Position numbers and translations under genes: made by a program. Shown here in pieces: positions 3,183-52,409 of a stretch of 64,000 nucleotides of DNA. This stretch comes from Podarcis filfolensis (Eukaryota), in assembly GCA_964270895.1 (NCBI GenBank), contig OZ185443.1; one strand, given 5' to 3'. Position 1 is the stretch's first letter; each line of letters begins with the position of its first letter. The notes beneath the pieces are model-generated. The model saw only the letters and a list, made by a program, of their open reading frames with translations. It was not told the origin of the DNA and did not search any database.

Positions 3183-3464
3183 AAAAAGCTGTAGAAAAGC
3201 AGCAAAGGGGAAGAGGTTCCAGATTCTTCCCCTGTCCACTGTTTTCATTTAGTCCTTTCTTCTTCATAGTAGCTTCCCCTGTCCCGCAGTTTCCAAAGTG
3301 TTTTCCCTTATCACAGGAGGTTGCTAGGAGGAAATGGCAGATGGGGAAGGATTGAGCATTCCTCTCACCTACCATTTCCCCACTGCAAACCTCCCCCACA
3401 TATTTCTAGTGACCGGGGATCTCGTACCCAGCAGGGCAGATGGGCCAATGGTTACGACCCAGTA

Positions 3465-3706
3465 CAGTGGTACCTCAGGTTAAGTACTTAGTTCGTTCTG
3501 GAGGTCCGTTCTTAACCTGAAACTGTTCTTAACCTGAAGCACCACTTTAGCTAATGGGGCCTCCTGCTGCTGCTGCACCACTGGAGCCCAATTTCTGTTC
3601 TTATCCTGAAGCAAAGTTCTTAACCTGAAGCACTACTTCTGGGTTAGTGGAGTGTGTAACCTGAAGCGTATATAACCTGAAGCATATGTAACCTGAGGTA
3701 CCACTG
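3465..3706 (-). mobile_element. Tc1/mariner (Tigger/pogo-like) MITE, copy 1, nested in a SINE tail
   Basis: CAGTGGTACCTC / GAGGTACCACTG TIRs; TA TSD; splits CAG|TA|TAAGGCAAGTTCCTATGTTCCT. Confidence 0.92.
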
Positions 3707-3821
3707 TATAAGGCAAGTTCCTATGTTCCTTAAAAAAAAAAATGTAAATGAGAACAAGGGACACAATTAAAAATAGGCAAAACAGACTAGATGGCAATTA
3801 AAAAAATTTAAATGCTAGAGT

Positions 3822-5686: not shown

Positions 5687-5915
5687 CCCGGAGGAGGAAT
5701 GACCACAGGAAGGAGCACAGAGAGAAGAAACGCCATGGTGCATCTGCTGCAGCACAAACTGATGCTTTCATCTGCCTCAGCTTCAGCAAAACATGTCTCT
5801 CCCATATTAGTCTCTACAGCCACAGCAGGTGTTATAACCTTCCAAAAGTCTGCATTTGACCTCACCCCAAAGGCACACTCCTCCATTGTTTCCCAAGACA
5901 GATGGGTGCCAACTC
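5687..5915 (+). mobile_element. RTE-clade LINE 3' fragment, second copy
   Basis: Colinear with and highly similar to 1125-1340. Confidence 0.8.

Positions 5916-19848: not shown

Positions 19849-19893
<45 letters not shown>
19760..19893 (+). mobile_element. L2-type 3' end with expanded (TTA)n tail
   Basis: GGAAGCTGCCCAGAGTGGCTGGGGAAGCCC...AAATAATAAA followed by about 14 TTA units. Confidence 0.75.
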
Positions 19894-19900
19894 TCCAGTA

Positions 19901-20113
19901 CAGTGGTATCTCGGGTTACAGACGCTTCAGGTTACAGAATCCTCTAACCCAGAAATAGTACCTCAGGTTAAGAACTTGGCTTCAGGATAAGAACAGAAAT
20001 CATGCAGCGGTGGGGCGGCGGCAGCAGGAGGCCCCATTAGCTAAAGTGGTGCTTCAGGTTAAGAACAGTTTCAGGTTAAGAACGGATTAAGTTCTTAACC
20101 CGAGGTACCACTG
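19901..20113 (+). mobile_element. Tigger/pogo-like MITE, copy 2 (internal deletion)
   Basis: Same TIRs and TA TSD. Confidence 0.9.
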
Positions 20114-20183
20114 TATACTGTTGTGGCTCACTTAAGAGTGCAAGTTCTAGTCCCCCAACCCTACACACAGCGTGGTAGTCAAC

Positions 20184-24503: not shown

Positions 24504-24640
24504 NNNNNNNNNNNNNNNNNNNNNNNNNNNNNNNNNNNNNNNNNNNNNNNNNNNNNNNNNNNNNNNNNNNNNNNNNNNNNNNNNNNNNNNNNNNNNNNNN
24601 NNNNNNNNNNNNNNNNNNNNNNNNNNNNNNNNNNNNNNNN
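24504..24640. other. Assembly gap (137 N)
   Basis: Run of N. Confidence 1.
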
Positions 24641-32075: not shown

Positions 32076-32301
32076 AACCCCTGGACTGTTAACTTCTGTC
32101 ACTGCCTATGGATCATGTTTTCAACTCAAAACTGATTACTCATGCCTCACCAAGGTTTGATTGGTAATATTGTGGTGGAGGTTGTAGCTTCCTTAGTCTT
32201 TATAGGTAGGCACAGCCCACACATGGGGCAGGGTGAAGCAGTCACCTGAGGCAGCAGAAGGCCCTGAGGCAGCTTCCCCATGGGTGTCTCACCCGCCTCG
32301 C

Positions 32302-32651
32302 TGTTGTGACGTGGGGTTTGTGATTTCAGCTCTCTTGACATAATATGCTGGAGACAGTTCTGTAGTAACACTTCTTTATTACAGCAAACAAGACTGAGAA
32401 CTGAGGAGGGGAGAGCTACATTTATAGGGACAGGGAACTACCTAGAAAGGATACATTTTGGAGGGAACAATATCAGGCAATCACAGTCCTGCCTTTTGGA
32501 GGAAACCAATAAGACAGAGGATCCAAATACAGCAGCTTAAATGAACCAATAGTAGCTGTACCCTCTGGAACCAAAAGGCAGTTACTTTACCCTAATGCAA
32601 ATACAGACAACAATAATACAGATATAAAATCCTTTGACTCAATACACAACA
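32302..32651 (-). repeat. 3' LTR (350 bp)
   Basis: Direct repeat of 36861-37210; TG...CA ends; AATAAA at 32375-32380 (minus). Confidence 0.97.
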
Positions 32652-32665
32652 CCCCTCCCCCCCCT
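32652..32665 (-). promoter_or_regulatory. Polypurine tract
   Basis: Minus strand AGGGGGGGGAGGGG abuts the 3' LTR and overlaps the TAG stop of pol. Confidence 0.93.
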
Positions 32666-34736
32666 AGTGAGCACTGCAGACGTAATCTCTCAGGTACTGT
32701 GGGGGCCTACAACTTCTACTTGATCTCCTGACAACAGGTGTTGCCGGTTCTGGATTGGATGTTACCTGTGGTAGGGGGGGTGCTATAGGGGTTTCGTCAG
32801 GAACAGATGGAGTCCCAGACATCGCAGGGTCCCCTACCTGTACCTCGTCCTCCTGAGGACTAGCAGACCCTGGTTCATTTGCTGAAGCCCCTGGTGACTG
32901 CACCTCTGGGCCATTTTCACTCTGGTCTTGCAGCTCTGCGTCGTTAGCCAGGGATGAATTATCTGACCCCTCCCTGCTGAGCGCCCGGCGCCTCAGCTGA
33001 TCTATATGTCTCTTCCAAACTTGCCCATTTTCCAAGGTCACATAGTAGGACACTGGTCCACTAGTCCGGGTGACCACACCAGCCACCCACCGCGGACCTC
33101 GTGAATAGTTCCTCACCCAGACCAGATCTTCAGGGGCGAGATACCTTGTTGTGTCAGCCTCAGCCTGGGGGGTTTCTCTTGAATTACGGTTTGGCATTTT
33201 ATCGGGGTGGACATAATCCAGCACCGTTACCAGTCTTCTACCCAAGAGCAGCTCAGCTGGCGACTTGCCCGTCGCAGTACACGGCGTCGCATGCTGCAAA
33301 AATAACATTCGCGCGATGCGAGCTGACCAGTTACCCTCCATTAAGCGCGCAATGGATTCTTTGGCTGTTCTTACCATGCGCTCAGCCTGCCCATTGGAGG
33401 ATGGGTGAAAGGGCGCGGATGTGACCCCTCTTATGAAGTTATCAGCCAAGAATGCCCTGAATTCTTGGGATACAAAAGCTGCCCCATTATCTGATACAAT
33501 GGTCTCAGGTAACCCGTGGGTTGCAAACAGCTGCCTCAACACCTTGATTACGGCAGCTGATGCCATGCTAGGGACCATCGCCACTTCTAACCATTTGGAA
33601 TATGCATCGACAATAACCAAAAAGACCTTCCCCTGGAATGGCCCAGCAAAATCTAAGTGCAGCCGGCTCCAGGGAGATCTGGACTGCTCCCACCAGTGAA
33701 CTGGTGCTCTGGCCACTTCTGGCCGCACCTCTTGGCATGCCTTGCATGTTCGTACCCATTGTTCTATGTTCTGGTCCATTCCAGGCCACCACACATAACA
33801 TCGGGCTAGCGACTTCATCCTGACCATTCCCGGGTGTCCCATGTGAAGCGTCTCAAGAACCCTGTTTCTCAGTGGTGCTGGGATGATCACCCTATCTCCC
33901 CACAGGAGACAACCCTTATGCATGGACAACTCGTGCTGCCTTGTCGCATAAGGCCTGAATTTGTCTTCATGCGGACCACCTGGCCACCCCCTCCCCACCC
34001 AAGTGAGCACACGGGAGAGAACAGCATCTTTCCTCGTTTTCTCAGCTATAGCAGTAGCCGTTACAGGAGCCCCCGGAAGTGTTTCCAGCATCATTATGTG
34101 CTCCGCTGGAGCAGGATCCACATTGCTCCCGCCAGGAAGAGGCAATCGACTCAGCGCATCAACGTGGCACAACCGTTTCCCTGGCACATGGGTCAAGGTG
34201 TACTGGAACCCGTTCAGGAATATAGACCAACGCAACATTCTGGGGGAGAGAATTTGTGGCGTTTGTTTGTTCGGGTTGAACAACCCTAACAGTGGTTTGT
34301 GGTCCGTTTCAATGGAGAAATGGCGACCATACACATAATCATGGAACTTTTTGATTCCTGCCACAATTGCAAGCGCCTCTTTGTCAATTTGAGCATAGTT
34401 GCGCTCCGTGGGCGACAACGTACGGGAATAGAAAGAGATGGGCTTTTCCGACCCATCCGGTTCCCTATGACTCAGCACCGCCCCCAGGCCGTATTGAGAG
34501 GCATCACATGCCAGGACCAGCGGCTTCGACTCATCGTAATGAGCAAGGACGCTCCTGCTACTCAGCATTCCTCGCAAGGAGTCAAAAGCCTTCTGCTGCC
34601 CCTGCCCCCATCGCCACACATTCTTTTTCTGCAACAGTCGATGTAATGGTTCAGCTACCGAAGCTTTGTGGGGTAAGAACGAATGATAAAAGTTAATAAG
34701 TCCCAGGAATGACTGCAACTGCGTCTTGTTCTGTGG
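32664..34736 (-). CDS. RT thumb/connection, RNase H and integrase (downstream of the premature stop)
   Basis: RNase H LACDASQYGLGAVL, EKEALAI-like DKEALAI and TDHKPL. Integrase HHCC (HMGHPG...CKAC), DDE (LDFAGP, SDNG, NGQAER), GPY/F-like region, and RRSSR...LRDYV C-terminus. Confidence 0.92.
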   Translation of the reverse strand, partial: PQNKTQLQSFLGLINFYHSFLPHKASVAEPLHRLLQKKNVWRWGQGQQKAFDSLRGMLSSRSVLAHYDESKPLVLACDASQYGLGAVLSHREPDGSEKPISFYSRTLSPTERNYAQIDKEALAIVAGIKKFHDYVYGRHFSIETDHKPLLGLFNPNKQTPQILSPRMLRWSIFLNGFQYTLTHVPGKRLCHVDALSRLPLPGGSNVDPAPAEHIMMLETLPGAPVTATAIAEKTRKDAVLSRVLTWVGRGWPGGPHEDKFRPYATRQHELSMHKGCLLWGDRVIIPAPLRNRVLETLHMGHPGMVRMKSLARCYVWWPGMDQNIEQWVRTCKACQEVRPEVARAPVHWWEQSRSPWSRLHLDFAGPFQGKVFLVIVDAYSKWLEVAMVPSMASAAVIKVLRQLFATHGLPETIVSDNGAAFVSQEFRAFLADNFIRGVTSAPFHPSSNGQAERMVRTAKESIARLMEGNWSARIARMLFLQHATPCTATGKSPAELLLGRRLVTVLDYVHPDKMPNRNSRETPQAEADTTRYLAPEDLVWVRNYSRGPRWVAGVVTRTSGPVSYYVTLENGQVWKRHIDQLRRRALSREGSDNSSLANDAELQDQSENGPEVQSPGASANEPGSASPQEDEVQVGDPAMSGTPSVPDETPIAPPLPQVTSNPEPATPVVRRSSRSCRPPQYLRDYVCSAH

Positions 34737-36734
34737 TCATGGTGCCTCGATGATGGCCTTAATCTTAGCATCTGTGGGGTGGATGCCTGATGCATCAATT
34801 TTAAACCCCAAGAAATCCGCGGTTGGCACCCCAAAACTGCATTTTTCCTTTTTCAGTTGCAACCCCACCTCCTTGAACTTGAGCAACACTGCACGGACAC
34901 GCGCAACCAGTTCCTGTGGGTCTTTTCCAGCAATCAAAACGTCATCAAAAAATGGCAAGACCCCCGGCAGACCTCTTAACAGGCGTTCCATGAGCCCTTG
35001 AAAAATCCCTGGGGCCACACAAACTCCAAATTGTAATCTGTTAACTCTGAACGCCCCTTTATGTGTGACAATAGTCTGTGCTTCCGCTGATTGTGGGGTT
35101 ACTGGCAGCTGTTGGTAAGCTTGTGCCAGGTCAATTTTGGCGAACACCTTGCCCCCAGCCAGTTTAGCCAACAGATGTGATACGACTGGAATGGGGTATG
35201 AGTTTCCCCTGAGTGCCTTATTGATAGTACATTTGTAATCTGCACAGATCCTGACTTCCCCATTTGCTTTAAGGGGCGTGACAATTGGAGTCTCCCACTT
35301 AGCAGAGTCCACGGGTGAGAGAACTCCCTGCTTGACCAATTTATCCAGCTCTGCTTCGATCTTGGGTTGCAGTGCAAATGGCACTCGCCTTGGTTTGAGT
35401 CGGATTGGGGCCACCCCAGGGTCCAATTCGAAGTCAACTGGGGGCCCTTTATAACAACCCAGTTTTCCATTAAAGAGACCGGCAAATTCTTTGCATAATG
35501 CCTCGCTCATCTCAGGGCAGGTTTGGATTGAATTAAGCCCTGATATACTCAGTCCCAGGGCGGGGAACCAGTCAGTGCCCAGGAGACTGGGGCGACTGCC
35601 CTTCGCAATCACCAGTTTGAGTACCGCCTGTTTGTCCCGGAACTGTACTCTCACGGCACACATTCCCATGACATGGATGCGGCCCGCTGAGTATGACTGC
35701 AAGGTTGCCGGGAAGGGCTCCAGAGGGGGCAACTTACCCCTGGGGAAGAATGTCCTCGCGGTCTGGTCCGACACGATAGTGAATCCAGATCCGGAGTCCA
35801 CCTCCATGTCGCACAGCTGACCCTCAATCTTCACCTTGACGTGTGCCTTGCCTTGCGCTGGAAACTGCACGACCCTCCCGTTGATCTCCGTTACGTAGTG
35901 GCAGTCCTTTAGAACATGGTTTGCCGTGGATGGTCTGCGATGCTCCAGTCTAGTTGCTCCTGTCGCTCCCAGCGCCGCCGATCTACAGACCCTGGCGATG
36001 TGACCTGTCTTCCCGCACGTCCGGCACATAGCATCCCGGAAACGACAACTCTTCCACTCATGGTTTCCGCCACAACCAGGGCACCTGCCTCGGTGATCTT
36101 TGTGCACTGTGCAGGCCTGACGCACTGACTCGACCCCACGGACTGGGCTTTGGCTCGGAGTAGCCTCTAGCTCGTCCATGGCATGCGCAACTTCTATCTT
36201 AGGGGCCTTGCGACTGGCATCAAGCTCCTCTCTTTCATAATTCTCCGTGGCAGCGGCCTCCTTCAAGGCTGAAGCAAGGGTAACCTCTTCTTTAGCCACG
36301 ATGCGTCTTCTGGCTTTCTTGCTGCTCAGACCACCGATAAACTGATCCAGGAGAGTCTCTTCCAGACATTGGAAGTCGCAGTGCTGAGCGAGCTTCCGCA
36401 GTTCAGCTAGGAATGCAGATACAGACTCCCCAGCACGCTGCTGCCTCTTATGAAACTCCAACCGCCGGGCCATCTTGGTCTCAGTAGGTGCCAAATGGCT
36501 TGTCAGGCAGGCAAGAATATCTTTGAGAGGTGTCTCACTTAGCTTCGCTGGAGCAAGCAATGCCTTGGCCAGCTTGAAGGTCTCAGGCCCACAGTAGCTC
36601 AGGAATGTGGCCCTTCTTTTGCTGGCATCGGTGATCCCTTGAGCCACTGCGAAGAACTCAAAGCGTTCGACGTAGTCTTCCCACGTGTGGGGCTCTGATG
36701 GCTGGAAGGGCTCCAATACCCTTGGACTCTCCAT
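34737..36734 (-). CDS. Gag (capsid-like domain, two CCHC-type knuckles), aspartic protease and RT core; ends at the premature stop
   Basis: CPGCGGNHEWKSC and CRTCGKTGHIARVC knuckles; protease VDSGS; RT motifs KIDLAQAYQQL, RLQFGV and FFDD. Confidence 0.92.
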   Translation of the reverse strand: MESPRVLEPFQPSEPHTWEDYVERFEFFAVAQGITDASKRRATFLSYCGPETFKLAKALLAPAKLSETPLKDILACLTSHLAPTETKMARRLEFHKRQQRAGESVSAFLAELRKLAQHCDFQCLEETLLDQFIGGLSSKKARRRIVAKEEVTLASALKEAAATENYEREELDASRKAPKIEVAHAMDELEATPSQSPVRGVESVRQACTVHKDHRGRCPGCGGNHEWKSCRFRDAMCRTCGKTGHIARVCRSAALGATGATRLEHRRPSTANHVLKDCHYVTEINGRVVQFPAQGKAHVKVKIEGQLCDMEVDSGSGFTIVSDQTARTFFPRGKLPPLEPFPATLQSYSAGRIHVMGMCAVRVQFRDKQAVLKLVIAKGSRPSLLGTDWFPALGLSISGLNSIQTCPEMSEALCKEFAGLFNGKLGCYKGPPVDFELDPGVAPIRLKPRRVPFALQPKIEAELDKLVKQGVLSPVDSAKWETPIVTPLKANGEVRICADYKCTINKALRGNSYPIPVVSHLLAKLAGGKVFAKIDLAQAYQQLPVTPQSAEAQTIVTHKGAFRVNRLQFGVCVAPGIFQGLMERLLRGLPGVLPFFDDVLIAGKDPQELVARVRAVLLKFKEVGLQLKKEKCSFGVPTADFLGFKIDASGIHPTDAKIKAIIEAP

Positions 36735-36840
36735 TGTCCTGTGGGCAGGGTCGTCTTCTCAGCCGGCCAGTGAGTCTTGTTCTTAGCTACAATCCGGACT
36801 CTGAGGCAGGGCTGCGTTTAACCGCTCCTCAGCATTCCGG

Positions 36841-36858
36841 ATCCCATCCTCGTCGCCA
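36841..36858 (-). promoter_or_regulatory. Primer-binding site, tRNA-Ser(GCU)
   Basis: Plus strand reads ATCCCATCCTCGTCGCCA, matching the 3' 18 nt (including CCA) of vertebrate tRNA-Ser(GCT) as I recall it. It lies 2 nt from the 5' LTR. Confidence 0.9.
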
Positions 36859-36860
36859 GT

Positions 36861-37210
36861 TGTTGTGACGTGGGGTTTGTGATTTCAGCTCTCTTGACAT
36901 AATATGCTGGAGACAGTTCTGTAGTAACACTTCTTTATTACAGCAAACAAGACTGAGAACTGAGGAGGGGAGAGCTACATTTATAGGGACAGGGAACTAC
37001 CTAGAAAGGATACATTTTGGAGGGAACAATATCAGGCAATCACAGTCCTGCCTTTTGGAGGAAACCAATAAGACAGAGGATCCAAATACAGCAGCTTAAA
37101 TGAACCAATAGTAGCTGTACCCTCTGGAACCAAAAGGCAGTTACTTTACCCTAATGCAAATACAGACAACAATAATACAGATATAAAATCCTTTGACTCA
37201 ATACACAACA
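36861..37210 (-). repeat. 5' LTR (350 bp)
   Basis: Identical by eye to 32302-32651. Minus-strand TATAAA at 36980-36985 and AATAAA at 36934-36939, plus CCAAT boxes. Confidence 0.97.
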
Positions 37211-38624
37211 CTTGCCACCTCAGCCTCCAATTTCTGGTGAAATCTCTCTAAAATCTTACAAGATCTTGCTGGAAATCAGCACTGAGGCTGGCACAGCTTC
37301 TCCAGCGTCAGTGGAATCAGCAGTGCAAGTGGTACGGCAGCACTTCCTGTTTTGCCTCAAGTGGTGACACAAGATGCACCAGCCCTGTTTATAGGCTTTG
37401 GGCCTACCCAAGGACTGAACCTGTGGTAGAAAGACAGAGTCCCTATGTCTGGAATGTTCTGGGCCAGATGAACTTTAAAACAATATGTTAAAGCCTCTTC
37501 GTTTGCATTTTGCATGCATACATGCAAGCTTGATGACTTCTCTTGGCTCATTCAGTTCTAATCTCTTTGATTTGCCTAAGTGATTTGCTTATTTAGCAAC
37601 CAGTCATGGAGCTACTTGCCATCATCAGATGGTGTCACAGCCTGACTCAGTGCAAGTCTGCTTCAGATATTCAAATGAGTACCACGGGCTGGTTGACTAT
37701 AATCTCACTTTGCAGTGGCCGCACCAACATCAAACACTGCTTACCTGTTTGCAGTGAAGCTAACTGCACTGTGACTTCATCACTCCAATGAAATGTGGAA
37801 GTCATGAGGGAATAGTAAGGTCAGTGCATAACTACACATGACTGCAGCACACTTGGATGTAGCCATTGCATGTGAAATTATAAACAACCCCACTAGTTCT
37901 TCTGAAACCAGAGGATTCCGGTGGTTCAGCAACATTCAAACAATTTATTTTAAAAGAATGCTCATTCTGCAAACAGCTTTAAATCAAAGTGACAATTTAT
38001 AGTTTTGTACAAGCACATCTTTCAATCCTTATCTAAGTTGTATATTTTCAGCAGAGTTTTACATGAATGAGAACTCCAAGGTTAATTAAACTATATATAC
38101 ACATTATTATAGAGTATAAAGAAGAGAGAAGCTGAAACACATACATATCATTACATATGACATTGTGGAACAATGATTCAGTCACAAAGTGCAAAATCTG
38201 TAATCCTGCCCACAGGCTGCTTAAATCCTGCTGAAGCCAATCATGTGGAGGATTGCAGCCAAAAATAATAGGGATTAATGGATGGAGTATGTTTTAATAG
38301 CAGCCAATTAAAAATCTGTCATGTGTGGTAAAGACCACTGACTTTGAGAATTATGTTGATGGTTTGAGATAACAGTGTAAACAGCATTGATTTTCTTTAA
38401 AAAGTGGCACTTAGTTTTCCTAGTGCCATAAGTCACTTCTTCATAGCTGTGCTGCTGTTATCACATACCGTAGCTATCACACAGAATTCAAAACGAAGCC
38501 TCTTGATCCTAAACACGCTGTCTTGATCTAGTGAGCGGGACTTTGCATGTGGAAATAGGCTACTGGCTTCAATTCCCCCCACCAAATACAAGTGTCATTT
38601 TTCCTGCAAAAGTTAAAGTTTCCT

Positions 38625-39072: not shown

Positions 39073-39715
39073 AAGCTTGCAAAAAGTAGGTTTCATATGT
39101 TGCACTGGATATGCTCCATTCGATGAGGAAAGGAAAGTCTCATTTATTCCCATGGAGTTTATTAATATAAATCTTTAGTCAGGGCAGACACTCATTCCTA
39201 ATGTAGAATGACTGTTTGAGTGCAAAAGTCACCAGTTTGTGCTCAGTGAACAACAGTTCTTCAGATAATGACCCAATTGTTCATGTGCACAGAGCAATCT
39301 AGACTGGGTGAAGATAATCTATATATAGAAGAATCTATACAGGGAGATAAACTGTCCCCCAGGTCTAATCATATTGCTCTTCCATCAACTGTGCTGAGGT
39401 AGGAAGGAGCTGCTGGCTTTTATGCCTCACTGGTTGCCCAGGCAGGCGTGCAGCCAATGTCCTTTCAGCCAGTGATGCATACGCCCCCAGAGGAGCCCAC
39501 TCATTGGTCAATTTGAAATACAGCATCTATGGGAAATTGAGTCAGCTACCCAGGTGGTCAGGTGGAATTCCCCCAATGGCCATGTGCATTCCATTCTAAT
39601 TGTCCAGGGATGGGGACCGAGTGAGTCTCCACAACAGCTGCCCAGCCAGAGGAAGAGGTAAGCACCCATTTTGTGTCAAAAATAAAAAGCAAAGAGCAAA
39701 GCATACTTTAAAGTA

Positions 39716-39957
39716 CAGTGGTACCTCAGGTTACATATGCTTCAGGTTACATACACTTCAGGTTACAGACTCCGCTAACTCAGAAATAGTACTTCGGATT
39801 AAGAACTTTGCTTCAGGATGAGAACAGAAATGGGGCTCCGGCGCCGCGGCGGCAGCAGGAGGCCCCATTAGCTAAAGTGGTGCTTCAGGTTAAGAACAGT
39901 TTCAGGTTAAGAATGGACCTCTGGAACAAATTAAGTACTTAACCCGAGGTACCACTG
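39716..39957 (+). mobile_element. Tigger/pogo-like MITE, copy 3
   Basis: Same TIRs and TA TSD; 242 bp. Confidence 0.92.
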
Positions 39958-41493
39958 TACCTCAAGAAGAAGCCTAGCCAGTCAGAAGTCTGGTTAAAAA
40001 AGGTGTCTACTTGGTTGCCTGAGCAGTGTTGTTTTTATTGTTATTAGTCTCTTTTTTCAGAAAGATGAACTCAAAGTGACTTACAAAAACAAACATTGGA
40101 AACAAGCCCATTCTCTGGAGTGTAATCTGTTTTAAAGTATTTTAGCATTAGATTTTTAAAATTGTTGTAACCTGTCGTGGAACCTCTGGACTGAAGGGAA
40201 GAAAGAAGCAGCAGCAGAGGATGAGGTCAAATGACCATCTCTACTGAGGAGAGATGGGGTTGGAATTCTGACCCTTAGTCCAATGCAGAAGCATATAGGC
40301 AAGAAGTAAAGAGATGCTTGCACCACCCCTTGCAACTTTGTGCAGTGGCCAAGTGCAGCTTATGTTAAGAGTTCAAAACAATCACACGGGTCTGACCATA
40401 CCTTTTTCTTCTTCTAAATTTCACTCTGTCTCTCTGACAGGGAGGGGGTGGTGGGGAGAAAAGATAATAGTTATGAATGTTTGTGGTATGCCCATCATTC
40501 TTCCTAGGTTACAACAGAAATGCCAGAGTTAATCACTTTCATAAGCTTATCTGTCCCCCCACTTGCAGCTTTGAAATGCCTAGCTCTGAGTAGATGGTAC
40601 CCAAATGACTCTAACACGAAAAGCTATAAATACTTACTAGAGTTGGCTCAACCGGCAATCCCAGACAGAGTAAACTAGAACGCTTTGTGGGCTACTTTTT
40701 AAAGACTGTCAAATTGCTGCAGGGAAAGAATGTTACCTCTGCCTTGACAATGAACAATAGCATATGGAGTGTCTGCATTTGCCATTTGCTTAAAAAGGCA
40801 TCTGAAGAAGCCGTGTGCGGTGCTGCAGCTATTTAAAGACCTTTTGAAAACCAACCTGCTCCTGCTTCTTCTGCTGCTGTTGCTGCTGAGCATTTGTATA
40901 CCTCAGGCCACCTGAAGACAAGTTAAGTGTTGATTCAGAACCTTCGCATTTTTTGTTTTATTTCTCAGTGATAGGTAGGCTGGGATTTGCTCAAGACAAT
41001 GAGCGCAAGCCATAACCCTTCTTCATGGTAAACATATAATTTCCCCAGCGATCCACTGAGTAATAACAAAAAGTTATGTGTAGTACATGCACTGTTTATA
41101 TCCCTTTGGGTTTAATATTGCTCACAGTAAAATTGATTTTCTGGAATCTTGCAATAAACCTCATCAAAATAAACCAAATCCACCCTGGCTTTTTATGAAG
41201 TGATTGGAATCACTGTAATTATTTAACCCTCTCCAGAAGGAAAATACACATATCACACCCCTCCTGATAAGGTGCTTATATGATTAAATCACTTCTGTTC
41301 CCGCTTAGGTTTTTAACCATCTTATAACATTCTCTTTTCATCACTAAGGCTGCTAAGTGACATTTTACTTCAGTGAGAACTATGTACTTTTTACATGAAG
41401 AATGATGACCAAACCACTTTATTTAGGGCAAACGAAAATACACATTAAGCATGAGGAAAGCCCGCCAGCTGCCTCAGGGCCTAGTTTTGGGAA

Positions 41494-42159: not shown

Positions 42160-43546
42160 CTGTAGAACGCCTGATCTTTATGTAAAACCTGGAGGGGAAC
42201 TGCTCCAAACTCAGGTGAACTGGAGCATCTAAAACATGAATTGGATTTAACTTTACACAGTGGTTATTGCAGATATTAATATTGCGCAGCTTGATGCATA
42301 AAAGCTGACTTCTTTAGGAATGAAGCATCGTACAGACCCGTTAGATTGTTCAAAACTTTACTTGTGGAACTTTCTTCAAAACAGAATGAAGACATCAAAA
42401 ATACACCCAAAATATCTACACAATACATTGTGCTGTCCAGCACAGGTTCAGCATCTTCTTAGAAATAAAAGATAATTCCAAACAGACCTAGAATCAAAGA
42501 TTTCTTTCCTTATAGCTTCCATTTCACCTGGAGCTGTTTTCCTGAAAAGTTTCATTTGCATCCTTACCCTCACAAAGCCTGAGAACATAGACTAAACCCT
42601 TTCAAAATGGAGATTTGCAACCAAATACCTTTTGTCACATGGTCAAAGGCACGCACCCGCACACACATACTCAGTTTAAGAGCAGAGAACATTCAACAGC
42701 TCAGAGTCCATTAGAATACTGTAGTGGAACTTTCCAGTGTTGAACCTTTTAGCAATACACAGGCATCCCAATTTCAGTGTGTAGAAAAATGATGACAAAT
42801 TTCAATACAGCCTTTTGAAAAACAAAATCGTAAAGTGTTGAGGAAATGTGATTAATTTAAAATTGGGGAAAAGAGAGAAATCAGAACTGACAGATCCACC
42901 CAGCCCTAGTAGATTAGCCCATTCAAAGCACATCTCTATAAAAGAGAATTCAGCAAAGAAAGAAGCTTTTCTTTAATGATAATTTTACTAATATGGCTGT
43001 GGATGATTGAGATGAGTGCTTTGAAAAGATAGTCTTGACAAGCAAGAAGACTGATGTGATATACGTCTCCATTTTGCCAATCCTGAAGATCTAGCTCCTC
43101 TGTTAATCTACTGCACTGACATATATTCACACAGCGCAAGCTTTCTCACTGTATTCATTGCCCAAATAATGTGTTGATTCTTACCCAGAAAGACCGTGAT
43201 TGTAAAATGAGATGTTACATGAGAGGTTTTTGTGACTAAGGAGGCTGGCTGCATAAAACACAATCATGTCGGAAATGAATGGGGATTATTCGACTCCTGC
43301 GTTGCTCCCATTCATTTGAGTGGGTGTTTCTGCAAGAGATGCAGGGCAGGCCCTTTCTTTAGGAAGAGTGAGGTGGCTTCCTCAGGCACAATGTGCAGGG
43401 AGAGGGAGAAACAGTAGGATTCTGGAAGACAGAGTTGCTTGCGTCATGTAACCCACCTGTTGTCTCAGGTGAAGTGGAAGCCACTGTCCGATTGCCAGTG
43501 TTCACACAGGATTAAACTGCAAGTCCACTTTGCTTTTGCGAATAGT

Positions 43547-46910: not shown

Positions 46911-49900
46911 ATGCAAGGCAGAAGAAAGGATGGGGAAACAACAAAAATCTTTTAAACCAGTTTGATGTTGTAGTCCAAGCAAGGTCCTTATAGCCAAACT
47001 AAGGTCCTCGTCTACACTCGTCTCAAAATGGATATTCCATTAGTCTCTGATAAATGCTGCAGGTCTCAGTTGTACCTATGATTCTGAGACAAGTAAAGCA
47101 ATGGCCCACTCCCATTCTGGGAAACATAAAGTTCAACAGTATCATTTTGGTTGGTTCTAATGTAGATGCTGTCCAACTGTGTAACTGTTCTTATAGACCA
47201 ATATGACTTCCTGTACTTTTAAATTTCAGATTGAGCCTCAGTGGCGAGAGAGACAGAGACAGAGAGAGAAAATGTGTTGCTTTCATTGTTATATCCGGCA
47301 GAGAACAAAAGCAAGCTACACAGAGTTTCTGTTAAGTATAATTGATTTAATTGACACAGGAATGGAAAATGAATGTTTAAAATGGGAAATGGCTAAATGT
47401 GTATTGCTAACTTTGGGGTTCCTTCACAGTAGTTTTCTAAGTGGACTCTGAGCTCTTGCTGAGTTGTTAATTAACTAACTGTTGTTTTCTGTTAGCTAAC
47501 ATGTGAGTGTTGTGACCTTAGATCAGGTGATAAAGCATTTGGTTGCAAATCTCCATTTTGAAGGAAGTTGCCTTTGAGTCTTTTGTTTCCCAAACTCCAT
47601 GGGGTGAAGATGTAAAAGCTGGAGAGCAGGCTGTGGGGAGAGACAGACCTCTGCTTCTAGGTCTGTTTGGATTATTTCATATTTCCTAAGATGCTGAGCC
47701 TTTGCTGGACAGCATAATACATTAAATTGATATTTTGGATGTATGCTTTGATGTTTCTGTTTTGTTTTGAAAAGTTCTCACTTTGAATAATATTTGTATG
47801 GGTCTGGACAATGATTTCTTCTGAAAGGAGTCAGTTCTTCTGCATTGTTTCAAACTGTGCAATATTAATATCTGCAACAGTTTCATGGGAGATATAATAG
47901 AATTATCATAGTGGTTATCCTTGTGTCAATGAAAGCACTAATCTCTGGCAAATTTTGGAACCTACCAAAAAAAGAAAAAAACAATAATTTCACATTTTAA
48001 AACTCTGTGAAATATTTGTAAGGGACTCATACTGATAATGTTTGAGCACCCATCAAGATTTAAGATTCAAAGTGTTCATTGGAATCATGGGGTGTGGTAT
48101 GGAGGTTGCTCAACTACTGTTTCCCAGGATTTTCCAGGATGAAAAATAGTCATCAGTCTGTGTATCTGTTTATCAATCTCTTAAGACTCTTCATTAAATG
48201 TTTGACCATATGGGTTTAAAGTACTGGAACAGCAACAGTGATATCCATTTTTACATTCCTATTTCTGCTTTCAGATAATGCAGATGCCTGGGTCTTATAA
48301 TCTAGAAATTTAGGGATACAGTGGAAGAAATGGCTGGAAGGATAAAATGCCATGGAAAAGTTAAACACGGCTATTATTTCCCAATTGTTACATTGACAGA
48401 CGGCAATGTTTATGCAATGTATAATTCAGAGCAAATTTGCCTAGAGGTCCAAGATAAAGATGTTTTATCCTCCCGAACAAATGTTGTGCTGCAACCTTCA
48501 AATCTAAAGTACATAGTGCAACCTGAGACTGAACAGAATCTCACCCCCTTCCCACTGCAACCAAATCAACATGATGGTATTTACTGTTTCCAAATAAGGA
48601 ACCTGGCCTTCTTTCAAGTCCTTATAGTAATCAATCGTTTAGCAGTAGGAGGGGGGAACATATTCTCCCTTTCCAAAGTCTTTAAAAACCAGCATCCACA
48701 AACTGTCTCCAAGGTCACATTGTTTGCCAGTTGTTCAGTTTACTCAACTTCTGCTTTGAACCAAATAACGTGATCTTTGTTTCATTAATATTTAAGAGTA
48801 ATTTAGATTGTGCCAGATGATCTTATAGCTCATTTAAATCAGTGTGAAGATAATATTAAGATTTCTCCTGCATAATCTACTACCATAAATGATTTGTGTC
48901 GTCTGCATATAAATGGCAAGCTGAATATGATAATTAAGTACAAAGATTATCAATAGGGAATGACAAATGTATCTGACAAGATAAATCCTCCCGGGACCTA
49001 TTTATTTGGTTTCGGATGGTATATATATAAAAAAAGCAATGCATTGTTTCATTCAAAATATTCTACAAAAAGGCATAAGTGATGTGGATCGCTGGGGGGT
49101 GGCGGGGGTGGGGGGAGATCCTACAGTGAATAAGGGAGGCAAACCCCAGGCCAACTGTTTCTGCAATTCTCTTTGTTTTCAAGCATAGCAATTACCGTTC
49201 ACGCAAGCCCCCTTATATTTCCTTATCTTGATTCATGGCTATATTTTGAAGTACGATTAGACATAAAGATGTATTTAGAATACATTTTTATGGCCATTTA
49301 AACTGGTTAATATTAATTGCCAAGTAAATGTCATGCCCACAATAAAAATGCAATACCTGAGCAGCATTAATAATACGGCACCCAAAGCAATTACTTCAGA
49401 AAAATGACAGCTGGGAGGATTATTGGGAAACCCCACAACAGTCAGGTTGACAGTTGTAGATTTTCGTTGTCAAGCAGGCGGTTTCATATGTGTTGTTTAA
49501 AATCAGCTATTTGATTTTCAAGCAGATTTTAAACTCATCACTGGTGGATCAAGGACAAGGCAAAGGATGGGTTAATGCATGGCCACAGTGCAACTTAAAG
49601 TTCTGCAGTATTTCTTTGAAGGATTCAATTTGAGTCAGGATTCTGCCAGGTTATGTGTACGAAGGATACCTAATTTGGTGCCCTCTAGATATTGTTGCAC
49701 CGTCTTTTCCATCTATTCAAGGGATAACCCACCCAAAGAGGACATGCAAGTGTAAAAATACTGTAGAGGCCGAAATCACACAGTAGATTCGTGAATTTTA
49801 CATGGGGAATAAGCAGTGTGATTTTTGCCTTATATGTGTAGGATTGTGGGTGCATCTGTCTCATTTCAATGGATGGCAAAGGTGAGGCCAGAGTCCTGAT

Positions 49901-50385: not shown

Positions 50386-51571
50386 ACTTGGCACTTGTCT
50401 CTGAAGATAAGAGAGAGAGAACACCAAGTTGTACCACAGAAACCCCAACAGATGTGGCAGGACTACTCTAATGAATTTGCTCATGAAAGCTCTTCTGTGT
50501 CTGTTTCCAGATAATTCTTTACAGCTTTCCATCACATTTCTCTTACAGTCTAAGGATGTGGACCCAAAGCAGGACAAGGGGAAATTAAAAACAATGATTG
50601 TGATACATCTGATATTTTTTTAAAGTCTGTATAGATGACAGTATATGAATCACTTGCTTTTTTAAAAATAAAGTGCTTCCCTGTATTCATTTTTGTAAAT
50701 ACCTTCATCGCTATCATATAACCATTTCGTTCTGAGAATATTAAATATCTCTATGGCTGTGTTCTTCCACAGAATGATAAATGACTCCATTGATTTGACA
50801 GATGTTGCTCCTGTCCAGCAGCAAAAAAATTAGGGAAGGATTCCTAAGCTACATTTTTCTTCCCCAAAGGAATGCCAACAAAACCCACTAACTTGAAATA
50901 CATGCATTTCCTTTTGCAGGAAAAACACATCTAGAGGAATCTTGGAACCTGCCTGCTCCAGTTTATGAATTGTGTAACCCAAAGTTTCTCAATATGAGGC
51001 TGCCCAGATGTTTTGAACTACAAATTCCATCAGCCCCAGCCAGCACAGCCATGGTACAAAATATTTGAAGGGCATCAAGCTGAGGAAAGCTCTTGCAGGC
51101 TAATGTTCTGCTTTCCCCTTATGTGTATTTTCCTACAGATACCCTCCACTACAAAAATGTGAATTCTGCAATGGCTCAAAAAATGGCGAAGACTGTATTA
51201 TCACTGATAGCCCAGCCCAGTATTTTGCACTGGTGGTACTGTATTTTATTACCCAGCCCAGCATTCTGAAATGGCAGCAGCTTCTACACAAGGGGTTGCC
51301 ACTGTTTTTGAGCCAAAGGACACATTTGGAATTTTGAAGTGTCATGGCTGCCAATTCCGAAATGGCTACTGTGTGTGTGGTATCAAACAAAATGGCAGTC
51401 ATATCTAAAAGTTTTTGAACATTTTTAAAGGAAATTCACCAAAATCTAACTTCCAACATGGATTTTCCCAGATACTTCAGTGATACTTTCTCGACTGCCA
51501 TATTCTGGTTATGGCCAGGAAATTCTGGACATATGGCAGCTCAAAGATTGATGACCTCCCTATTCGGTATA

Positions 51572-51797
51572 CAGTGGTACCTTGGGTTACATACGCTTCA
51601 GGTTACAGACTCCGCTAACCCAGAAATAGTACCTCGGGTTAAGAACTTTGGTTCAGGATGAGAACAGAAATTGTGCTCTGGCGGTGTGGCGGCAGTAGGA
51701 GGCCCCATTAGCTAAAGTGGTGCTTCAGGTTAAGAACAGTTTCAGGTTAAGAACGGGCCTCCGGAACGAATTAAGTACGTAACCAGAGGTGCCACTG
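51572..51797 (+). mobile_element. Tigger/pogo-like MITE, copy 4
   Basis: Same TIRs and TA TSD. Confidence 0.92.
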
Positions 51798-52409
51798 TAA
51801 CCAGACTACTACCCATAAAATCTAGTGTAATCTAGCAGCACAAACCATCAACACGGATTCCTTGAAATAAAATCCTTGTATTTGTATGGTCTCACCCCCC
51901 CCCCCAATTCAGTTCTAGTGTTGATCATTACCTCTTCTGGTGGCACAAAGTCAATTCAGTACTCAATGGAGGCGGGAAGCTTTGTTTTGTTTGTTTTGAA
52001 ACATGTTGTGTGTCAATTTAATTGGGCAAAACTGTATTACTAGTGTTATGTGAAAGGCTAAACATCTATCCCCTGCTCATTTTCACCAGAAGGAGCATGA
52101 GGTTAAATGCTATAAAGAAAAAAGCAAAAAAGCAAGCAAACAATCCATGAGCAAGTCTGTGGCAGAGATAAAAAGCACAAAATGCAGACCAAAGCAGGAA
52201 AGCTGTTTTATATGATCAAACCGCAACAATAGCACCTAGATCAGAATGACTTAATAATACAAAGACAAAGAAGTATGTAAGAGAGGACACTGGAACAGGA
52301 ATTTTGACCTTGGAAGAAAAGTGGGTCTATTATGTAGATACTTGAAGTTTTCTCCTAAAACCCAGAAAAAAATATACAAGTGATTGGGGAAGGAGGCATT
52401 TTGTAGCAT

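Follow-up and report, generated by a model that had tools for sequence, protein, structure and literature searches.

Retrotransposons with two identical long terminal repeats (LTRs) are usually read as recent arrivals, and a nonsense codon inside such a copy raises the question of how and when it was acquired. The case considered here is an element of 4,909 bp on the minus strand, at positions 32302-37210 of a stretch of 64,000 nt from Podarcis filfolensis (referred to as the window). An earlier note, made from the sequence alone, had described it as a very young Gypsy element with a single lesion, a stop codon in the reverse transcriptase (RT), and had treated this combination as remarkable. 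Our comparison with the rest of the family favours a plainer account. With high confidence, we regard the locus as one of about 91 products of a single young wave, a full-length, env-less Ty3/Gypsy copy whose stop was likely an ordinary point mutation at a hypermutable base after insertion and which is predicted to be unable to transpose alone.

By every feature tested, the element is a Ty3/Gypsy LTR retrotransposon: it has direct LTRs with TG...CA ends, a short target duplication, a primer-binding site (PBS), a purine tract, the domain order protease (PR)-RT-RNase H-integrase (IN), and a Ty3-like RT (Table 1). Most of the structural description in the earlier note was borne out, i.e. LTRs without a difference (32302-32651 and 36861-37210, identical over 350 bp), PBS, purine tract, one frame of 4,071 nt, and a single TGA at 34737-34739, and the RT, RNase H, integrase zinc finger and integrase core domains all pass Pfam. 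Three genomic tRNA-Ser(GCT) genes have a 3' end complementary to the PBS. The purine tract shows a one-base length difference (homopolymer) near 32657, and the CpG observed/expected ratio is 0.57 in the interior versus 0.21-0.22 in the flanks. There is no env between integrase and the 3' LTR, as the frame ends inside the purine tract adjoining the LTR, and no other frame of 150 aa exists on the element's strand; an errantivirus or endogenous retrovirus was rejected on the missing env. Likewise, a chromovirus was rejected, with no Chromo match at E 0.001 (Pfam) after the integrase.

Table 1. Features of the element and its target site, with positions in the window.
Feature	Position	Strand	Details
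5' LTR	36861..37210	-	350 bp, TG...CA ends; TATA-like word at LTR position 226, AATAAA at 272
3' LTR	32302..32651	-	350 bp, TG...CA ends; no difference from the 5' LTR
Primer-binding site (PBS)	36841..36858	-	18 nt, complement of the tRNA-Ser(GCT) 3' end plus CCA
Polypurine tract	32652..32665	-	Directly after the frame end, no space for env
Single gag-pol frame	32664..36734	-	1,356 codons, 4,071 nt, from ATG at 36734 to TAG at 32664, interrupted at codon 666
Premature TGA, codon 666	34737..34739	-	Sole in-frame stop; also in two other copies, distant within the family
Gag capsid-like region (limits approximate)	36240..36734	-	Homologues; weak PNMA match (E 1.8e-4), below the cut-off
Two zinc knuckles	35985..36083	-	C-X2-C-X3-H-X4-C, then C-X2-C-X4-H-X4-C; missense at 36056 in the first
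Aspartic protease DSG motif, aa 313	35790..35798	-	D common to 49/50 homologues
Reverse transcriptase core (RVT_1)	34797..35261	-	Pfam E 5.2e-19; FDD at aa 596-598; missense at 34819
RNase H	34206..34610	-	Pfam E 2.2e-36 and 4.3e-35; downstream of the stop
Integrase HHCC finger and DDE core (rve)	33402..33884	-	Pfam E 1.4e-17 and 4.2e-14; downstream of the stop
Target-site duplication beside the 5' LTR	37211..37215		CTTGC on the plus strand; mismatch to the other copy at 37213
Target-site duplication beside the 3' LTR	32297..32301		CTCGC on the plus strand

The best matches among solved structures are Ty3 RT (4ol8_A, E 2.4e-31) and Ty3 Gag-Pol. The part encoded before the stop aligns to residues 54-281 of the 478 residues of Ty3 RT, and the product would thus be missing the remainder of RT along with RNase H and integrase. 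The column of codon 666 is variable among homologues (2.78 bits), and the damage would consist in truncation rather than in the loss of a conserved residue. Of twelve catalytic-residue columns looked up among the homologues, three (aa 546, 599, and 743) were mis-indexed and left out. An autonomous element was rejected, as the gag-pol frame is interrupted by the TGA.

How unusual such a copy is can be judged from its siblings. The window lies at G000:C9:38874001-38938000 of the 1.5-Gb genome, in which a 30-nt internal word is found at 91 places (84 exact and seven with one mismatch) and at none with two or three mismatches, while a 29-nt LTR end is present 272 times exactly, 310 times at up to one mismatch, and 314 times at up to three. 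The lack of a divergent tail in these counts marks the family as a single young wave in which solo or partial LTRs are numerous; old relics are not visible, although fast-changing words may hide them. A pattern that left codon 666 open matched 72 copies including this one, and 61 of the 72 entered the full-length counts (11 without two LTRs in the fetched stretch were excluded, and copy L083 was additionally omitted from the tree). A perfect 5-bp target duplication is present in 50 of the 61, identical LTRs in 19, and a frame of at least 1,340 aa in 21. At least one stop occurs in 24 copies, and ten have exactly one stop and no frameshift. With 8 of the 19 identical-LTR copies having a broken frame and 10/61 a single stop, identical LTRs combined with one nonsense codon are a common state in the family and not a remarkable one. 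The earlier suggestion of a family active until recently is supported by its numerous close siblings (72 matches) and by the 21 long frames. Two copies, L059 and L060 (G000:C4, 98.69 and 98.81 Mb), have the same target duplication and are paired in the tree (support 99), and thus likely stem from a segmental duplication and not from two insertions. Family contigs are also contained in runs X15 and X17 (perhaps RNA, and from other organisms), which says nothing on expression of this locus.

The history of the stop follows from its distribution across the family. TGA stands at codon 666 in 3/72 copies and a sense codon in 69/72, and all of the nearest siblings (29/29) are one base different from this copy in that codon. 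The other two stop-bearing copies are far removed, with 45 and 44 differences from this copy (43rd and 51st of 60 in closeness); at subfamily-diagnostic columns they differ from it at 13/20 and 14/18, and the nearest siblings at 2-3. The only rare allele that they have in common with this copy is the stop allele itself, and as nothing else is shared, the stop recurred in this copy. A single stop-bearing lineage was rejected for this copy by rare alleles, diagnostic columns, and an AU test, the last of which weakly rejected forcing the three into one clade (p 0.047; marginal, from a quick tree). The other two group together (SH-aLRT 81) with three common rare alleles, and it is possible that the stop had two origins rather than three, one of them shared by these two copies. 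Such recurrence is seen elsewhere in the frame: 18 codons carry stops across the family, three of which recur in three copies and one in four. CpG-type transitions account for 424 of 1,044 rare alleles at 354 of 4,209 positions, a 7.4-fold enrichment per site that points to germ-line methylation and confirms CpG-type decay, invoked earlier for this codon, as the dominant mutation process of the family. As a gauge of lost selection, non-silent and silent variants were compared; they number 336 vs. 198 among singletons and eight vs. eight among shared variants, a non-significant difference (Fisher p 0.30).

This copy has accumulated other changes as well. It carries nine rare alleles (family median 14, range 4-39), made up of one stop, five missense, and three silent changes, with six of the nine of CpG type. 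The missense changes at 36056, 34819, and 34162 lie in conserved columns (0.28-0.39 bits), and the residue of this copy occurs in 0/39, 0/52, and 0/51 homologues, respectively. Together with the length change in the purine tract and the mismatch in the target duplication, they contradict the view of the stop as the sole lesion. Some of the nine alleles may derive from an unsampled parent copy. The absence of LTR differences is to be expected since the LTR holds a single CpG (0.61 differences expected, P(0) = 0.54), and LTR identity by itself sets no more than an age bound, below about 2.2 million years. With the rate of 1.98e-9 substitutions per site per year given in the available text of PMC8760935, the three non-CpG changes correspond to 0.39 million years (0.08-1.15). 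From sequence divergence, the insertion would be young, but not brand new, with an age of roughly 0.1-1 million years.

The earlier note had proposed to look for insertion polymorphism, and the site is indeed empty in other individuals, i.e. in all four runs checked (X1 and X3 from organism A, X6 from organism C, and X4 from organism B). Contigs of X1, X3, and X6 join the flanks at flank depth and skip 4,914 bases (4,909 + 5), and X4 has a variant join at the empty site; all four runs carry the family elsewhere. Contigs of these runs drop rare alleles, so that heterozygous carriers are possible; the family is collapsed in them, and the stop is not displayed. Since the empty site has the sequence of the target copy at 32297-32301, the copy at 37211-37215 likely mutated afterwards.

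Elements of the Ty3/Gypsy type are transcribed from the 5' LTR, translated into a Gag-Pol polyprotein, and reverse transcribed from a tRNA primer with copying of the LTR. On this basis, the ancestor of the present copy would have been transcribed from its 5' LTR and translated as one Gag-Pol polyprotein. Reverse transcription primed by tRNA-Ser and the purine tract would have produced the identical LTRs, followed by integration at a 5-bp staggered cut. Once inserted, the copy was probably methylated in the germ line and left to decay without selection, and any translation would now stop in the late part of RT and not reach RNase H or integrase.

Could the stop instead have been present from the start? 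An error of the reverse transcriptase or inheritance from a parent copy would have made the element dead on arrival, which the identical LTRs would suit as a sign of recent insertion, and one site alone is undatable. Against this, eight further rare alleles and the altered host target duplication show that time has passed since insertion, the CpG-skewed spectrum of the family points to germ-line decay, and no parent with the stop plus other alleles is found among the 61 copies; we thus consider this origin improbable. Nor is an assembly error a likely source of the stop. Homopolymer length differences, such as the one-base difference near 32657, are a typical class of long-read error, and contigs of the other runs (with the family collapsed) are without the stop. 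However, the same stop stands at two other loci, stops recur at other codons, and the nine rare alleles lie within the family range of 4-39, far above the expected error of a chromosome-level assembly, leaving very little room for a frame that is open in the animal and closed only by assembly or base calling.

A role for the truncated copy fares no better. The earlier note had envisaged that it might be mobilised in trans as a non-autonomous template or, by making Gag, protease, and a shortened RT, act as a dominant-negative; in favour of this, the copy retains its LTRs, PBS, and purine tract, a long open frame survives in 21 of 61 copies, and the stop occurs in three copies. Yet no other copy has more than one of the nine rare alleles of this copy, the copies with the stop do not form a single lineage, and the first zinc knuckle is altered at a conserved column. 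A dominant-negative effect is likewise unsupported for one copy among about 91, and we deem either role highly improbable. A comparison of rare alleles across the 61 full-length copies found no daughter copies, and a non-autonomous subfamily (LARD/TRIM-like, trans-mobilised) was rejected, as there is no lineage of copies with a common disabling change. Programmed read-through or recoding that sets Gag versus Pol output is scarcely credible. With C as its next base, the TGA has a leaky stop context, and its fixation in all family members would suggest recoding, but a stop confined to 3/72 copies is not fixed, and the idea is effectively refuted by sibling counts. Moreover, the stop lies inside RT, past the stretch that matches Ty3 RT and away from the gag-pol junction, and full-length relatives in Zootoca are annotated as uninterrupted proteins of 1,358 aa. 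An ordinary point mutation after insertion thus accounts best for the stop.

The closest relatives are Gypsy polyproteins named “Uncharacterized protein K02A2.6-like” in Zootoca vivipara (e.g. XP_060130523.1), Podarcis muralis, P. raffonei, and P. lilfordi, which belong to the same family and are automatic gene models rather than a described element family. Seven Zootoca members have 95.6-95.9% identity to this element over 1,355 aa and partial Podarcis members 94-98%, and both form one clade in an RT-RNase H tree (SH-aLRT 96). Compared to the Zootoca form, this copy is two residues shorter and has the stop at codon 666. Near window position 36197, six bases absent from the copy in this genome are present in family contigs from organisms B, C, D, and E, and they match the two additional residues of the Zootoca proteins. 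The seven full-length Zootoca vivipara proteins differ mutually by only 5-17 residues, so the family is young in Zootoca too. Gypsy proteins of the tick Rhipicephalus microplus (P0014 and P0015) adjoin the lizard clade in the tree (support 90), with 56% identity overall and 66-67% in RT, an old link at most. No paper describing the family was found in the literature searched; subscription papers, supplements, or Repbase/Dfam may contain one.

Among known systems, yeast Ty3 shares tRNA priming and a 5-bp target duplication with this element, and differs in that its gag and pol are linked by a frameshift and a different tRNA serves as primer, in place of one frame and tRNA-Ser. Both are also alike in RT fold and in the order PR-RT-RNase H-IN (PDB 4ol8, 7q5b). 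The Mag clade (Bombyx Mag, SURL, and relatives) resembles the element in two zinc knuckles, a single frame, and the lack of env and of a chromodomain match, while the first knuckle here has X3 spacing and two knuckles are not unique to Mag. According to the available text of PMC2577118, two knuckles are usual for Mag and Micropia/Mdg3, and the available text of PMC3587641 offers no structural definition for a Mag clade comparison. Our RT-RNase H tree contains only unnamed K02A2.6-like proteins and no named Mag reference, so that Mag-clade membership is suggested by the two knuckles as a lead only.

The young age of the family in two lizard genera bears on its arrival. A recent horizontal transfer, with the Zootoca lineage as donor or recipient (or with ticks, for example, as a common vector), may have brought the family into Podarcis, where it would still be spreading, but this is on balance doubtful. 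A recent invasion would fit a single young wave with no old relics, insertion sites varying among individuals, and absence from a relative that retains the flanks: in run X21 (organism F), unique flanks are covered at 4-9% divergence and depth 10-15, and the element has a depth of 0-2.9 (80% threshold, one run). Organisms D and E contain the family at 1.3-1.6% and 2.0-2.3% divergence. The nearest Lacerta agilis protein among the matches listed has 70% identity (gene models), and the element tree unites the Podarcis and Zootoca copies apart from Lacerta, which paralogous lineages could also explain. This grouping departs from the host tree, in which Podarcis is sister to all other Lacertini (available text of PMC6733905); the crown of the latter is dated there to 15-47 Ma, and at 1.98e-9 per year, this gives an expected neutral Podarcis-Zootoca divergence of 6-19%. 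Host RAG1, with an identity of 99.1-99.5% to that of three Podarcis species against 98.5% for Zootoca and 98.1% for Lacerta agilis, marks the host as a wall lizard. The element protein with 95.7% between Podarcis and Zootoca is not above this host control (98.5%). In the loose C-terminal tail, 10-13 of 106 residues are different, which agrees with the lower part of the neutral range. P0047 (Podarcis muralis) and P0050 (Zootoca vivipara) form another Gypsy lineage of near-identical members, with branches of 0.028 and 0.018, reflecting either the usual vertical rate or repeated exchange. Hydrophiine snakes offer a precedent in squamates with a Gypsy family transferred from fishes, also the source of the three transfer criteria, namely patchy distribution, similarity above that expected from host divergence, and conflict between element tree and host tree (available text of PMC8872380), whereas here a transfer between lacertid genera is only a candidate.

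In the remainder of the window, a search for host genes gave no Pfam matches in 45 other long frames (short exons would escape). Direct repeats of ~227 bp (1121-1341 and 5688-5913; 80% alike, 4.57 kb apart) were rejected as an older LTR element, with no match to this polyprotein between them, and are likely two copies of a short interspersed repeat. Inverted repeats lie at 42267-42631 and 47532-47877 (~240 bp at 74% plus shorter arms, ~5 kb apart). A repeat of ~250 bp (inverted ends TACAGTGGTACC...; depth very high in every run) occurs at 3462-3708, 19892-20118, 39714-39960, and 51568-51799, and resembles a Tc1/mariner-type miniature element. Positions 24504-24640 are 137 N.

Taken by itself, the copy is ordinary, a young Gypsy copy of known kind in early decay that the earlier note described well. 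It marks, in a routine way, the onset of decay in a young element and can serve for presence/absence typing. The family offers somewhat more: in an amniote, a young LTR wave that is polymorphic and rich in open-frame copies makes CpG decay and solo-LTR formation measurable (314 LTR ends vs. 91 internal matches). Only its possible jump between lizard genera would be notable. If true, transfer between lacertid genera would add a case of Gypsy elements passing from one land vertebrate to another, for which records are fewer than for transfers with fishes (in part from the available text of PMC8872380).
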